This document shows, piece after piece, positions 27,001-36,000 of a stretch of 64,000 bases of DNA. Each line of letters begins with the position of its first letter. Within the stretch, counting starts at the first letter, position 1. The stretch lies in assembly GCA_043826455.1 (NCBI GenBank), contig JBDRQD010000002.1, positions 1 through 64,000 on the forward strand, read 5' to 3'. This stretch comes from Candidatus Bathyarchaeota archaeon (GTDB lineage Archaea; Thermoproteota; Bathyarchaeia; TCS64). The position numbers were made by a program.

Positions 27001-30000
27001 ACAATCTGATGGCTTTGTCAGGCGGGGTCTTGGCTGTGGTCTCTCACCCGGACGACGAGACCTTCGGGTGCGGAGGGACCCTGGCCCTCCACGCGTCCAT
27101 GGGCGTCCCAGTGAGCGTCCTTTGCCTATCCTGCAATCCACCGGGTAGACGTGGGGAGATCATGGGGGCAGCCGAGGAGCTGGGCGTCCCCGAGCCCGTG
27201 GTCCTCGATGACCTGAGCATCGCGCAGACCCCGGGCCTCATCAGGCGGGTGGCTGACCACATAGTGGCCGCTAAGCCCAAAGTTGTGTTGACTCACGTCC
27301 CCTTCGACTATCACCGTGAGCACAGGGCGACCTACGAGGTGGTGAAGGAGGCCGTGGAGTGGGCGGCCCACACCACTACCTACGATGAGCCCTGCTTGGT
27401 GGAGCGGCTTCTGCTGATGGAGGTGAACACGCTCATACCTAGCCCCCACGTACTGGTGGACGTGTCGGAGGCCATGGACGCGAAGAGGCGGGCCACCAAG
27501 CGGTACACGTCCCAGCTGGCCAAGTTCACATGGGGCTACTATGAGAGGTTCAACGAGAAGAAGGCCGAGCTCCGCGGCGTCCAGGGCGGCTGCTCCTACG
27601 CCGAGGCTTTCCAGGAGGAGCCCCTGGCCAGGAGCGGCCCCTTCTACCCGGTGAAGAGCGTCAGGAGCCTCCTCTGAGCCTCAAGGTTTAAACCGGCTCC
27701 GCGCCGTCTTTTCTGGGAGGAAACTTGAATCTCTACGGGCTCAAGGTCATAGACTTCCACAGCCACTTCCCCGTCCAGAGGGGCGGCGGAGGGGGAGGCT
27801 ACTGGCAGCGGGTGGTCGAGAAGTACGGGGAGGAGCGGGCCACCATCATCATCCAGAACAGCCGAAGGTACAGGGACGACTGGAGGCGGATGTGGGGCTT
27901 CGAGGCTCCGGAGGAGGGGACCCACAGCGACGAGGAGCAGGCGGAGCGCTGGGTGGCTGACCTGGACGCCAAGGGCGTGGAGAGGGTGAACTTCGTCACC
28001 GGAGGCGGCAACGACAACCTGGTCAAGGTTGTGGCCATGCACCCCGACAGGTTCACTGGGTTCGCCCACCACGACCCCTTCAGCGAGGACGCGGCCGGTG
28101 AACTGGAGCGGGCCGTGAAGGATCTGGGCCTAAGAGGCTACAAGCTGATATCGTCGAGCCTGACTCAGCCGGTGGACGACAAGTCGCTTTACCCCCTTTG
28201 GGAGGCGGCTGAGAGGCTGAAGGTGCCCGTGCTCATCCACTTCGGCGTCCTTGGGGGAGGAGGGGGCCCCTCCAGGGACCTGAGGAACATGGATCCGCTG
28301 ACTCTGTGGGAGGTGGCCGCCAGTTTCCCGACGCTAAACTTCGTGGTACCCCACTTCGGGGCCTGTTACCTCCGGGAACTCCTTCAGCTGTGCTGGAGCT
28401 GCCCCAACGTGCTGATGGACACCTCGGGGAGCAACCAGTGGACCAGGTGGATGCCATACAGGCTGACCCTGGAGGACGTATTCAGGAAGGCCATAGAGAC
28501 GGTTGGCCCAGACAGGATCGTTTTCGGCACCGACTCCAGCTACTTCCCCAGGGGCTTTGCCCAGGAGTACCTGAGGGAGCAGCTGATGATATGCCGCAGC
28601 ATCGGCCTGGAGCAGGGCACGGTTGAGAAGATATTCAGCGGGAACGCGGCCCGGCTGCTCAGGCTCTCTTGAAAGGTTTTTATGAGCTCCCTCTGATGTG
28701 CATCCTATAAGTGGGGCATGCACTTGGAGAACACTGCGCCGGCGCACCTGATCTACAGCGACTACGTGGAGAAGGGATTGAGGGCGGAGCTGGCCCAGGC
28801 TCTTTGGGGGCAGATACCGTCCATCATGGGTGACGCCTACGAGGCATTACCCAGGATTCGCTCAAAGTACGAGGCCTCCGCGGAGATCGAGGGCTTCAAG
28901 AAGGCTCTGAAGAACGAGATGAGGTCCATGGGGCTCCTCACGGGCCGGGTGGAGGCGAGCATCGACCGCTTGGACCGTGGCGTCGTGGAGACGGGCCAGC
29001 AGCCCATGTGCTTGGGGGGTCCCAGCCTGATCCTGAACAAGTTGGCGTACGCCCACAGCCTATGCGGCATGGGGGACCACGGCTACGTCCCCCTATTCTA
29101 TAACGCCGACTATGACGGTGTACAGGCCGAGCTGCTGAACATCCGGCTGCCTAGTCCCTCCTCGCATGGTTTGCTGCTTTCTTACCCGTCTGAGCTGGGT
29201 GACGAGGGTGTGCCCATCCGCCTGCTCCATAACCCGTCTGAGGACTGGTTTAGAAAGACTGTTGAGAAGATCGAAGGCAACGTCAAGGGGATCATGAAGG
29301 GGGTGAACCAGGATGATCAGGAGAGGGTGGCTCAGAGGCTGAGCCACGCCCTGACCATCATCAGGGGCGCCTACTTCAGCACTGGCAATGTGTCGGACTG
29401 GGCCGCCAAGACCCTGGGGATCATCATCAATTTGGAGGCCGACATGGGTGTGCCCGTGGTCTCCCCCAGCAAACCTGAGCTCAGGCCCTTCTTCCAGGAT
29501 GGGTACGAGTTCCTTCTCTCGGAGCCCACCCGCAGCCGCTTCGTGGAGGCATCCAACAGAGCCGCTGAGCTGGTGGAGGGTGCCGGGTACAGGGCGCAGA
29601 TAGGGTTGCGGGGCCGGGACTACGTCCCCTTCTTCCTGGAATGTATGACGCCGGGCTGCAGGCGGAGCCGCGTCGAGCTGAAGTACGACGCTGGTGTGGT
29701 TAAGGGGAAGTGCCCCAAGTGTGGGGAGGAGTACGAGTTCAGCTTCAACCCTGGCAGCCCCGACCTCACCGACATCATCGACTGGATATCACCTAGAGTG
29801 GACTCTAGGCAGATCATAGTGGACTCTGTAATGCCCGTGCTGGCCCACGTGGGGGGCCCCGGTGAGACCAGCTACTACGCTGAGGTGATCCCCGCGGCCA
29901 GCGAGCTGGGTGTACCGTTCCCTCAGTACCTGCGCTACACCAGGGTCTTCTATAACACGCCGTGGAACGAGGCCGCCGCTAAGGAGGTGGAGGCCCTGGG

Positions 30001-33000: not shown

Positions 33001-36000
33001 CTTCTCCAGGCTGTAGGCCTGGTCGCGGTAGTCCTCTGGCCACCCCTTGGGGCTCCAGTTGGGGTCCGCCTTGACGATGCGGGGGATGCTCATGTTCACG
33101 ATCCTGCTCAGGTGGTTCAGGTTCCACTGGATACTGTTGGACTCCGACGTGAGCTTGTATGTGAACTCCTTCTCGCCCAGGTTCTCGGCGTGCCTGTCCA
33201 GGCTGTCGATGACGTACCCGAGCTGCTCTGCAAGTATTGACGTTTTGTCTCCCATAGAAACACCATGATCAGTGTTGAACGGGCGCTTATAACGCGTTCC
33301 CCCACCTACGCCTCTCTCATCTTCTCAACGAAGCCCACCAGGTACTCCACCGTCTTCTCGTAGAGCTGTCTCCCCTTCTCGGCTGAGCCCCGCGTAGGGT
33401 CACCCATGAAGCCGCTGGGCTCCACCTCCTCGGCCCAGTAGTAGACGCTCTGAGGGTGGCCGTCGAACACGTGGGTGCCGTAACTCCGGGTCTCCAAGCC
33501 CTCCAGCGGCTGGTTCAGAGGCTTGAGCTCGGCCCTGCTCATATCCACCAGCTCCGGGTGCAGGTGCAGCATCACCGATGTTACGGGCTCGCCGCCGTGC
33601 CCCATCCTGAGGCCTGGGCCCCAGAAGTCCTTGGGGGTCATCTGGGTGACGACGCCCCAGACGTGGATGACGGCGCACAGGGCCCCAGCCTCCTCCCTGA
33701 GCCTGTATGAGACCTCTCTGAGGGCGGGGAGGTTGTCGCCGCCGTGGGCGCTGAAGAAGATGATCTTCCTGAAGCCGCATTTAGCTAGGCCCAGGCACGC
33801 CTCGTAGACGTACCGGCTCAGGGTCTCCATGCTCACAGTCATGGTGCCGGGGAAGTGCTTGTAGGGCTCGGAGACGCCGAAGGGGATCACCGGAGTGACG
33901 GGCACCCGGATCCTCTCCCCCACGTCCCTGGCCGCGGCCTCGGCCAGCAGGTAGCAGCAGCCCACCGGCTTGTGGGCTCCGTGAGGCTCCATGCTGCCCA
34001 GGGGCACTATGACGGTGTCGGCGGCCTCCTCCTCTATGGTGACCCAGCTCTTATGGTGCAGGTAGAATGACAATCTGATCGGTTGAGGGTCAGCGCCTCG
34101 GTTTAAAGAACTTGTGAGGCTACCGGAGCCGCCCGCCGCTCACCCTGTTGAAGAGCCTGATGAGGTTGCCGCTCCTAAGGAGCCTGTGGAACTGTTCGCC
34201 GCGCTCCGTCTTCTTGTAGTAGTAGTTGCGGCCTTCCCTGCGCTCCGCGAGCACCTTCTCCGGGAGCATGAAGTCCTCCACCCACTTCTTGAACTGGGCA
34301 TCATTACCCAGCACCTTTATGAGGTCCCACTTGGTGGCCTCGCCGCGCTCCTCCACTGTGTCCAGTAGCTCCAGCGCTATGACGTCGGGGGTGCGGCGTA
34401 CACTCAACCTGCTCACTTTTTCAGCTTCTTGCGGAGATCGAAGAGCCTGCTGTACCTGCTCCTCAGCTCTATGTACTTGTGGATGTTGAAGAGTCCTACG
34501 ATGAGGTTGGAGCCCGGCGCGATGATCATCGCCAGTATGAAGAGGGGGTCGTCGAGGTTACCGTAGCGGAGGCCGATGAAGAGGACGTACACGCCGAGAG
34601 CTATGACCAGGACCCCCGCGGCCCCCACGTAGGTGACGCCTGAGAGCAGGTCCCCTACTAGGGTCTCGGAGTCGTCTATTATGCCATCGAGTATGGTGTT
34701 CCAGTTGACGAGCTCCTCGTCCACATCTTTCTTCGCCATGTTTATCAGGGGTTCAGTGTCCGATGACGTTAAAACGGTTGTTCTGAAGACAGCGCCGTGT
34801 CTAGTTCCAGAAAAAGGGGGGTTAGGGCCTGATGGGCGCCTGCACCTCGGTCATGATCTCGTCAGGGGCCACCTTGTTGGGGTCGTTGAGGTACAGGTCC
34901 CTCATGGGGCCGGCGATCTCCAGGCTCTTCTCCGAGACGTAGCCGTGGAGCCTCTGGTACGCCTGCCCTATGGTCTCGTAGCTGCCTCTGTGGACGAGGC
35001 TCACCACCCTGCAGGGCTCCAGGTTCCTGACCTCCACGGCGGGGTCCTCCACCACCAGCTTCCCCGTGACGGGGACGGCCACCTCTACGTCGGCGCCCTC
35101 CTCCTTGTACTCCTCGTCATGGTAGATGGTCATCACCGGGCCCACAATCTTCACGTAGTTTCGCTGGTTCTCGGGGGCGTATAGCACCCTCATGAGGTCG
35201 CCTATCAGCCTCCCAATGGTCTCGTCGTAGCTGCCGGTCTCCCTCTTGCTGAGGACACGGAGCCCGGGGACGTCCTTCACCACGGGGTCGGACATGGTCA
35301 CTTTAAACATCTCCTCCTTCTGGTTTCCTCTGAGCAACGACACGACCCGCTGGAGCCTGGTGAGCTCCCTCTCGGCGTCACCCAGGCGCAAGCTGAGGAG
35401 CTTATCCTGGGCGTCTCCGTCTCCCCTGTCCTCAGCCTCGAAGTATGCCGCCATCTCCTCGACGCTGAACCCCAGGTCGGATAGCTGCCTGATCTTGACG
35501 CCCCTCTGAATCTGGGCGCCCGTGTAGTACCTGTAGCCCGTGAAGGGGTCCTTGGCGCCGGGCACCAGGAGCCCCTTGGCGTCGTAGTAGCGGAGGGCCT
35601 TCTGGCTGAGGCGGGTGACCACGCTGAACCTGCCGATGGATATCTGGTCGACCGTCATCGCTCAACACTATTGACACGGCCCGGCTTCTAACGGCTTGGA
35701 GTCTGCCACAGGGTAGGGTTTGAGCAGCTGAGAGTTATCTGTTTGCCCCTTTGTCACCGAGACATTGTTCGGTTCAATGAGCGATGTGTGCGAAACATCA
35801 TCGAGTATTATTAAAATATTTAAACGGCTGAGTTTCCTTAACCTTTAATTGGAGGCTCAACGTTGTTCAAGGCGCGTTTCTGGGTGAGGCTGTTGTTGGC
35901 GGTCTCCCTGTCATTAGCCGCCACGGCTCCAGCCGCCCTGTGCTCCTCTGGGCCGAGCTCACGGTACGGGTGCCGGTTGGTCTACGACTCTGTGAACGAG

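Follow-up and report, generated by a model that had tools for sequence, protein, structure and literature searches.

A cluster of seven genes in the uncultured archaeon Bathyarchaeia TCS64 probably encodes a pathway for a low-molecular-weight thiol of the bacillithiol type, either bacillithiol or a close analogue, together with DinB transferases; the probability of this reading is put at roughly 0.7. Bacillithiol is a sugar–cysteine antioxidant so far known from bacteria only and, if the reading is true, it would have an archaeal maker and user. Its biosynthesis by BshA, BshB1 (or BshB2) and BshC is known from Bacillus subtilis, B. anthracis, Staphylococcus aureus, Deinococcus-Thermus, Chlorobiota and Bacteroidota. 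Open reading frames were called in the window (the whole stretch of DNA analysed, 64,000 nt) and all seven genes were found where the initial annotation had placed them; its family assignments were reproduced by domain and curated-model searches. The genes, and a nearby regulator whose membership is uncertain, are as follows.

27009..27677, + strand, PIG-L/LmbE-type deacetylase, BshB-like candidate (PF02585)
27725..28672, + strand, Amidohydro_2 TIM-barrel protein of a metal hydrolase/decarboxylase family (PF04909)
28718..30442, + strand, BshC-like ligase, archaeal zinc-ribbon branch (PF10079)
30439..31032, − strand, Thioredoxin_9-family protein, WCGDC motif (PF14595)
31066..32172, − strand, BshA, N-acetylglucosaminyl L-malate synthase (GT4; TIGR03999)
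32231..32704, − strand, DinB_2 superfamily, candidate thiol S-transferase (PF12867)
32776..33255, − strand, DinB_2/MST-like, candidate thiol S-transferase (PF12867 and PF04978)
34822..35658, − strand, MerR plus GyrI-like regulator, membership uncertain (PF13411 and PF06445)

Judged by sequence, the BshA of the cluster is a true orthologue. It scored 413.5 bits against TIGR03999 (curated equivalog cut-off 273.7) and matched B. anthracis BshA (PDB entry 2jjm, E = 7.3e-94; ∼1e-93 for 2jjm/3mbo), B. subtilis BshA (5d00, 5.1e-84) and 6n1x (5.7e-76) in the PDB. As the match is at equivalog level, GlcNAc-malate is the likely first product. The PIG-L protein is a candidate for the enzyme that would deacetylate GlcNAc-malate. 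It matched PF02585 with 63.8 bits and fell below the cut-offs of the BshB1 model TIGR04001 (74 versus 182.5 bits) and of TIGR04000 (60.2 versus 195.25 bits). Its PDB matches were TT1542 (2.6e-10), S. aureus BshB (6p2t, 5.4e-10) and, as near as BshB, an archaeal diacetylchitobiose deacetylase (1.3e-9). The HPDDE motif was retained in 61/61 related loci and HxxH reads HREH in the window; AHPDDE and HxxH are taken here to be the metal and catalytic motifs of the PIG-L fold family. A longer open reading frame for this gene begins at 26922, and the alignment of the relatives starts only at about residue 30. A search of the whole genome returned this one PIG-L gene and no BshB2/Bca paralogue, which sets the genome apart from the bacterial system.

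The BshC-like protein is a full-length homologue of BshC with the same fold, and forms part of a distinct archaeal branch with a Cys4 zinc-ribbon insert, a branch that Asgard archaea have too. Its scores were low, with 48.9 bits for PF10079, 51.4 bits for TIGR03998 (equivalog cut-off 265.8), 39.8 bits in a six-frame search of its own genome and an E value of 0.31 in a pairwise comparison with 4WBD (phmmer); the initial annotation had itself pointed to low BshC and BshB identities, and both proteins fail their curated cut-offs. An AF2 model (pLDDT 96.2) gave 4wbd as the best Foldseek match (E 2.2e-18, TM 0.67/0.71), and hhalign against canonical BshC, represented by 12 proteins every one of which matches TIGR03998, gave a probability of 99.9% and an E value of 1.5e-34 over 490 columns. 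The C-terminal coiled-coil region is shared with the bacterial enzyme. Two Cys knuckles, C309/C313 and C332/C335, are missing from canonical BshC. According to PMC5790435 the BshC reaction has never been reconstituted, Bacillus included; the addition of cysteine is therefore a step that we infer, and the protein is a candidate for the enzyme that would perform it.

An unlikely alternative is that the product is a different, undescribed thiol or amino-acyl-glucosaminide, a relative of bacillithiol rather than bacillithiol, with the BshC-like enzyme adding another residue or using another acceptor, or with the Amidohydro_2 protein modifying the product. The BshC-like proteins form a clade separate from canonical BshC (support 97), and a search with the BshC-like protein gave 50 representatives with E<=1e-30, whereas canonical BshC scored no better than E 1e-11; the residues that do not vary among 45 sequences drawn from the two branches (Q95, K108, D133, R318, G380 and Y386) are nevertheless all kept, although Arg318 sits within the Cys4 insert. 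Two of the four Asgard genomes tested (Heimdall chromosome G301 and Hod G302) contain the BshC-like gene with no BshA over the cut-off, and thus the archaeal BshC branch is not tied to BshA everywhere; in the cluster itself the equivalog-level BshA counts against this alternative. In 32 of 43 Bathyarchaeia-type loci the Amidohydro_2 gene lies within the biosynthetic operon, flanked by PIG-L and BshC, but it is missing from this position in the remaining 11 and in all Thorarchaeota loci, and outside the cluster it pairs with DinB and not with the synthesis genes.

The Amidohydro_2 protein itself matched PF04909 with 156 bits and no NCBIfam model; the best folds for its AF2 model (pLDDT 82.5) were 3irs (uncharacterised), LigW, LigJ and ACMSD. 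The initial annotation had described it as a gene with no known role. An orthologue was found in 52/60 BshC-positive and 1/241 BshC-negative Bathyarchaeia genomes, the same phyletic pattern as BshC, and the out-of-cluster gene adjoins a DinB gene in 9/11 loci, which probably places the protein on the side of the system that deals with thiol conjugates or detoxification.

The grouping of the genes is far above chance. All eight relatives that were fetched have an identical arrangement, and among the Bathyarchaeia-type loci in public genomes (n = 51) BshA abuts BshC, or BshC plus the thioredoxin, in 42/42 that were long enough to judge. The BshC family had been counted in 13/31 genomes of the genus; this number did not hold, as a query with the window's own protein found the gene in 27/31 other genomes of the genus, and for the archaeal zinc-ribbon branch the curated BshC models lack sensitivity. 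BshA (over the cut-off) and the BshC-like gene were present together in 56/301 Bathyarchaeia genomes, all of one family; the BshC-like gene occurred without BshA in four of the 301 (each 76–84% complete) and BshA without the BshC-like gene in none. Positive genomes made up 59/70 of that family and 0/230 outside it, counts that are not independent because the genomes of one family are kin.

The two DinB_2 proteins are candidate thiol S-transferases. That encoded at 32231..32704 passed PF12867 (46.1 bits, cut-off 24.8) and failed MST (24.3 bits, cut-off 27), with weak PDB matches (3di5, 0.012); its orthologues retain the helix-2 His in 30/30 and HHEGQ in 30/30. The protein at 32776..33255 passed both PF12867 (41.7 bits, cut-off 24.8) and PF04978 MST (28.2 bits, cut-off 27), its nearest structures were 8f5v (`Conserved protein', 1e-5) and the mycothiol S-transferase 8fx9 (2.1e-5, a weak similarity), and HH.GQ was retained in 28/29. 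The conserved His residues presumably form the metal site. The DinB superfamily is functionally diverse. DinB is present in 35/42 cluster loci. Six DinB_2 genes occur in this genome, and the family was found in 63/70 genomes of the positive family, usually in 3–9 copies, compared with 55/230 elsewhere, mostly as a single copy. In support of the initial reading, DinB_2 genes accompany the cluster and have multiplied. The Thioredoxin_9 protein (PF14595, 67.7 bits) is a candidate for the thiol-disulfide oxidoreductase of the system. Its nearest solved structure is PA1234 (1z6n, 8.9e-8), an entry with no assigned function; the gene lies between BshC and BshA in 20/42 Bathyarchaeia-type loci and the WCGDC motif was retained in 20/21.

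The genome, which is 97.7% complete, was also searched for the known redox partners of bacillithiol. A YpdA-type reductase (Bdr), which had not been looked for before, was absent at the cut-off (TIGR04018, best score 52.1 versus 339.9 bits), and the models for YtxJ (BrxC) and BrxA/B, TIGR04019 and PF06491, gave no match. The initial annotation had proposed a working bacillithiol pathway that would make the low-molecular-weight thiol of this archaeon, a reading that the data bear out in part. In its favour are three biosynthetic gene types that are clustered, conserved and strictly co-occurring, a BshA over its cut-off and a BshC fold with its invariant residues; the sub-threshold BshB and BshC, the zinc-ribbon BshC branch and the missing partners weaken it.

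What was observed is the identity of the genes, their folds and motifs, their synteny and their co-occurrence; the chemistry at each step, the end product and the functions of the thioredoxin, DinB and Amidohydro_2 proteins are given here as we infer them. BshA would join UDP-GlcNAc and L-malate, the single PIG-L deacetylase would strip the acetyl group to leave GlcN-malate, and the zinc-ribbon BshC-like enzyme would add cysteine, giving bacillithiol or an analogue very close to it. Users of the thiol would come from the convergent operon, namely the two DinB-type S-transferases and the CxxC thioredoxin-fold protein, which may replace the missing bacilliredoxins. The Amidohydro_2 protein would most likely take no part in core synthesis and instead work alongside the DinB transferases, on conjugates or their substrates, and the MerR/GyrI protein would probably join the thiol users of the convergent operon.

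A GlcN-malate-type glycoconjugate without a redox function, serving as a compatible solute or envelope precursor and with the DinB and thioredoxin genes as unrelated neighbours, is improbable. Glycan pathways often employ GT4 and PIG-L enzymes, chitobiose deacetylase matches the PIG-L protein just as well and the known redox partners are missing, but against it stand the strict co-occurrence with a BshC-fold ligase, the linkage of DinB_2 and the CxxC protein across genera, and a BshA over the equivalog cut-off. That the bin holds contaminating bacterial DNA, or that the cluster is a non-functional acquisition in decay, is very improbable: the estimated bin contamination is 7.2%, the MerR and DinB families occur mostly in bacteria and three related contigs carry the titles of bacterial MAGs (Krumholzibacteriaceae, one; Desulfaltia, two), but the genomes so titled fall within this archaeon's genus in the genome collection, most other genomes of the genus carry the cluster, its GC content matches the remainder of the contig, its reading frames are all open with conserved motifs, and a closed 2.30-Mb Bathyarchaeota chromosome (CP070784.1) carries the cluster and also encodes the archaea/eukaryote-type ribosomal protein L31e, which therefore excludes misbinned bacterial DNA. 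The cluster as first described is thus native to an archaeal chromosome and conserved within one Bathyarchaeia family.

The bacillithiol-type reading can be compared with three known systems. With the bacterial one the cluster shares the three clustered enzyme families, the equivalog-level BshA, the PIG-L motifs, the BshC features and associated DinB-type transferases (cf. BstA/YfiT); it differs in the additional Amidohydro_2 and Thioredoxin_9 genes and in its archaeal host, besides the BshB, BshC and redox-partner differences given above. Asgard clusters (Thorarchaeota and others) have the same zinc-ribbon BshC branch (29–37% identity), and PIG-L, BshA and BshC-like genes lie together in 21/29 Asgard loci. 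The Thorarchaeota loci, however, are without Amidohydro_2, Thioredoxin_9 and DinB; in 26/29 a convergent class I/II aminotransferase follows BshC, and a phosphoglucosamine-mutase-like gene lies upstream. NxxH replaces the PIG-L HxxH in 20/62 loci, a count in which lineages are pooled; going by the identity band, these would be the Asgard loci. The mycothiol pathway (MshA/MshB/MshC) likewise runs from a glycosyltransferase through a PIG-L deacetylase and a cysteine ligase to DinB-fold S-transferases, and includes the DinB-fold MST transferase and the Mca amidase. The nearest named solved relative of the second DinB protein is the mycothiol enzyme 8fx9, whereas the archaeal ligase is BshC-like and not of the CysRS-type of MshC. 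The scores for the mycothiol biosynthesis models MshA (78.3 versus 462.5 bits) and MshB (26 versus 224.35 bits) were both below the cut-offs, as was that for MST_Rv0443 (41.3 versus 170 bits).

Archaeal BshA and BshC matches were already known. A 2020 review (PMC7278568) gives 39 archaeal InterPro matches each for BshA and BshC and states that bacillithiol has never been detected in archaea, as the initial annotation had quoted; its remark that the homologues were mainly Asgard fits the printed record; in NCBI annotation, however, these Bathyarchaeota proteins already bear the names BshA and BshC. A 2025 RefSeq survey (PMC12719100) lists no archaeon with a complete bacillithiol pathway.

The MerR plus GyrI-like protein may sense a ligand and regulate the detoxification genes, although its membership is uncertain. 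It adjoins DinB genes in 6/51 Bathyarchaeia-type loci (L031, L039, L040, L063, L071 and L076) with 59–81% identity; L039, L063 and L078 share their contigs with L029, L023 and L026 of the fetched relatives and so add no further cases. In three studies, RNA libraries of close relatives yielded contigs that span the Thioredoxin_9 and BshA genes and the two DinB genes, which hints weakly at transcription, and the cover is highest for the DinB_2/MST-like gene at 32776..33255.

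The window is the initial 64 kb of a 90 kb contig (C2) from a 2.95 Mb genome in 81 contigs (97.7% complete, 7.2% contaminated), which carries an archaeal 16S rRNA gene on a different contig. The seven-gene cluster proposed in the initial annotation was confirmed between positions 27009 and 33255, where the genes form two convergent rows, and the Pfam and NCBIfam matches listed for it were reproduced by family searches of the window proteins.

Genes of the cluster (window coordinates, strand and product; each is an open reading frame with a family match)
27009–27677, + strand, PIG-L deacetylase
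27725–28672, + strand, Amidohydro_2 protein
28718–30442, + strand, BshC-like protein
30439–31032, − strand, Thioredoxin_9 protein with a WCGDC motif
31066–32172, − strand, BshA
32231–32704, − strand, first DinB_2 protein
32776–33255, − strand, second DinB_2 protein

The BshC-like and thioredoxin genes share four bases at their 3′ ends, and the gaps between genes inside each row, calculated from the coordinates, are 33–71 bases. The GC content of the cluster (0.60–0.63) is the same as that of most of the contig. The cluster very probably encodes a functional bacillithiol-type pathway, the product and redox partners of which are putative, with linked candidate DinB transferases. It had been proposed as a working bacillithiol pathway with its own S-transferases, and this is supported in part: the pathway type and the linked DinB transferases were retained, and the last enzyme is a distinct archaeal BshC variant.

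BshA scored 413.5 bits with the NCBIfam equivalog model TIGR03999 (cut-off 273.7) and matched the BshA proteins of B. anthracis (E = 7.3e-94) and B. subtilis (E = 5.1e-84); judged by this similarity, it is a clear orthologue of the bacterial enzyme. The PIG-L protein is generic by score, reaching 74 bits with the BshB1 model (under the cut-off of 182.5) and being about equidistant from Thermus TT1542, S. aureus BshB and archaeal diacetylchitobiose deacetylase. It retains the HPDDE and HxxH motifs and is the sole copy in the genome. Among its orthologues, pooled over all loci, NxxH was present in 20 of 62 copies and HxxH in the other 42; the NxxH form may reflect a change at the metal-binding or catalytic position.

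The BshC-like protein scored 51.4 bits with TIGR03998, far under the cut-off of 265.8, and barely matched B. subtilis BshC in a pairwise comparison (E = 0.31). When 1.84 billion representatives were searched exhaustively, 50 relatives were retrieved at E ≤ 1e-30, and the canonical BshC proteins (about 530 amino acids) were reached only at E values of 1e-11 to 1e-5. The best structural match of the AlphaFold model (pLDDT 96.2) was B. subtilis BshC (PDB entry 4WBD; E = 2.2e-18, TM scores 0.67/0.71), with class I lysyl-tRNA synthetase next. Profile–profile alignment of 21 archaeal-type sequences with 12 canonical BshC sequences, all 12 of which match TIGR03998, gave a probability of 99.9% over 490 columns; six residues are invariant in both branches and all six are present in the window protein. 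On the basis of the exhaustive search, fold match, profile alignment and invariant residues, the protein is a true relative of BshC.

The archaeal branch is distinguished by a pair of cysteine knuckles (C309/C313 and C332/C335) around the invariant Arg318, whereas canonical BshC is devoid of cysteines at these positions. Both cysteines of the first knuckle were kept in 76 of 80 loci and the second CxxC in 79 of 79. Six of the ten representative clusters of the branch had a source name, in every case that of an Asgard archaeon. In a tree of 51 rows the archaeal and canonical branches were split with a support of 97 and the Bathyarchaeia sequences formed one clade (support 100), placed within an unresolved basal polytomy together with Thorarchaeota and Ranarchaeia rows, so that the direction of any transfer between Asgard archaea and Bathyarchaeia is not fixed by this tree.

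The archaeal setting was assessed with related genomes. Using the window protein as the query, the BshC-like gene was found in 27 of the 31 other genomes of the genus, which revises the 13 of 31 counted previously for the BshC family; in a first sample, 30 of 36 genomes of the family had it, as against 0 of 24 from other families. The cluster also lies on a single 2.30 Mb contig (genome G036, record CP070784.1, titled Candidatus Bathyarchaeota chromosome). A search of this contig, which does encode ribosomal proteins, gave no match for archaeal 16S/SSU rRNA; an unassembled, masked or interrupted rRNA gene may be the reason. Because that search was empty, ribosomal protein L31e, which is encoded on the contig, was taken as the archaeal marker (in the control, this family matched only in the four archaea among the 14 genomes). 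The order of PIG-L, Amidohydro_2, BshC-like, BshA and one or more DinB genes was the same in all eight relatives fetched.

A public scan limited to one genome per species yielded 80 loci with a BshC-like gene. Those at least 50% identical (51) comprised 47 titled Bathyarchaeia or Bathyarchaeota, three titled as bacterial MAGs and one 'uncultured archaeon', and the other 29 (29–37% identical) were titled Thor-, Heimdall-, Hod- or Promethearchaeota or plain 'archaeon'. Among the Bathyarchaeia-type loci extending far enough, BshA adjoins the BshC-like gene, or that gene with the thioredoxin gene, in 42 of 42; a thioredoxin gene was found in 20 of 42 Bathyarchaeia-type loci and a DinB gene in 35 of 42. 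Amidohydro_2 lies between PIG-L and the BshC-like gene in 32 of 43, and PIG-L abuts the BshC-like gene in the other 11. The three loci with bacterial titles (L033, L035 and L072; Krumholzibacteriaceae, Desulfaltia) carry this cluster type at 66–92% identity and are probably mislabelled; the genome collection places the genomes matched to them (G020 and G029) in the genus of this archaeon.

The phyletic distribution was determined in a sample of 301 Bathyarchaeia genomes (the window genome, 70 others of one family and 230 in 33 other families). The BshC-like gene was present in 60, confined to one family (59 of the 70 besides the window genome, 0 of the 230). BshA over the cut-off was found in 56, all in the same family, with clearly bimodal scores (≥288 or ≤186 bits). 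Both genes occurred together in 56 genomes, the BshC-like gene alone in four (each 76–84% complete) and BshA alone in none. DinB_2 proteins were encoded in 63 of the 70 family genomes, usually in 3–9 copies (six in the window genome), and elsewhere in 55 of 230, mostly as single copies. Because the genomes of one family are kin, these counts represent one or a few evolutionary events and not 56. The cluster is confined to one family of Bathyarchaeia, whose members have larger genomes and numerous copies of DinB.

Asgard archaea with the archaeal BshC branch are not alike: one genome each from Thorarchaeota and Heimdallarchaeota encodes BshA over the cut-off in addition to the BshC-like protein, whereas the Heimdall chromosome G301 and the Hod genome G302 encode the BshC-like protein but no BshA reaching the cut-off. 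In 26 of 29 Asgard loci (L079–L108) a class I/II aminotransferase gene (418–435 amino acids) is convergent to the BshC-like gene. At the Heimdall locus L107 and the Hod locus L108 the aminotransferase is followed by arginyl-tRNA synthetase, and both genomes lack BshA over the cut-off.

The Amidohydro_2 protein, previously listed without a known role, has the fold of an ACMSD/LigW/LigJ-type metal-dependent TIM barrel, its top structural match being uncharacterized. No functional name was found in an NCBIfam search, in the protein atlas (generic Amidohydro_2 clusters only) or among homologues, the best 120 of which were all of the Bathyarchaeia type. It could be placed by co-occurrence and by DinB pairing. 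An orthologue (E ≤ 1e-60) was present in 52 of the 60 genomes with the BshC-like gene and in one of the 241 others. This extends to the genus in which the gene lies outside the cluster, where a copy was found elsewhere in five of five such genomes (71–73% identical), and in nine of 11 loci (L113–L118 and L121–L123) the out-of-cluster gene adjoins, at a distance of about 100 bases, a DinB gene whose product is 39–46% identical to the first DinB protein of the window. Because of this co-occurrence and adjacency, we infer that Amidohydro_2 is a partner of the DinB proteins. One of these pairs lies in a genome of another family without the BshC-like gene (G232). Processing of thiol conjugates is a candidate role; in Bacillus this is carried out by Bca, a PIG-L paralogue, and a Bca-type paralogue is absent from the window genome, the PIG-L gene being single.

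A YpdA-type reductase (Bdr), not searched for in the initial annotation, was sought in the window genome and no protein scored over the cut-off; the bacilliredoxin families YtxJ and BrxA/B and the GCS2-type γ-glutamylcysteine ligase likewise gave no match there. The CxxC Thioredoxin_9 protein is the only redoxin candidate within the cluster, and the closest relative with a solved structure is functionally uncharacterized. We consider it improbable that the zinc-ribbon BshC branch, the co-inherited Amidohydro_2–DinB pair and the CxxC protein form a self-contained archaeal thiol system with a product other than plain bacillithiol and with accessories that replace Bca, the bacilliredoxins and Bdr. 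If this were true, the cysteine donor that has been elusive in bacterial BshC work could come to light, because the ligase differs from bacterial BshC.

The bacillithiol-type pathway preferred here represents a well-supported genomic case beyond the Asgard archaea, and the archaeal branch a second, divergent form of BshC. A compact set for heterologous tests is provided by the three core genes together with the CxxC protein and the pair that may process conjugates. To our knowledge, the small thiols that buffer the redox state in most archaea are poorly known, bacillithiol has been measured solely in bacteria and the BshC reaction has been unsolved since 2010. Archaeal bacillithiol has been suggested before, in publications and through database names, which limits the gain: NCBI annotation already calls Bathyarchaeota proteins BshC and BshA, and PMC7278568 gives 39 archaeal InterPro matches for BshA and as many for BshC, most of them from Asgard archaea. 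PMC12719100 places the complete pathway in no archaeon of RefSeq, and PMC5790435 describes the BshC reaction as not reconstituted and the activated cysteine donor as unknown. A literature search for bacillithiol together with names beginning 'Bathyarchae' returned unrelated co-mentions and no paper linking both.

Three sediment studies yielded RNA-library contigs, 88–99% similar to the window, over the thioredoxin gene, BshA and the two DinB genes (for example, 302 bases on 32819–33117 with nine differences). They derive from relatives, may include DNA carry-over and give a weak hint of transcription of these genes in relatives; the uncovered PIG-L and Amidohydro_2 genes, most of BshC and the flanks carry no information on expression. 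Runs sharing only a small portion of words were not taken as evidence of habitat.

A creatininase-family gene (33306–34073, − strand) adjoins the DinB genes. Its product is 92–98% identical in three loci of the same genus (L029, L031 and L033), where the neighbouring proteins are mostly 61–94% identical and only the first (92%) and second (94%) DinB proteins of L033 come near it; either unusually strong conservation or recent exchange would account for this. The stretch 12000–16300, possibly an acquired island, has a low GC content (0.47–0.52 versus about 0.62); its genes encode GNAT acetyltransferases, a DUF4760 protein and a toxin–antitoxin-like pair (RHH/UPF0175 and DUF3368). Two tandem Kelch-repeat β-propeller proteins (383 and 426 amino acids) are encoded at 35863–38291 (+ strand), just past a MerR/GyrI regulator. 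A four-gene run at 39867–46476 (+ strand), encoding a class A-type β-lactamase-family protein, a β-lactamase-fold protein with a Pab87 octamerization domain, an S58 (DmpA-type) peptidase and a second β-lactamase-fold protein, looks like a D-amino-acid/peptide hydrolase set.
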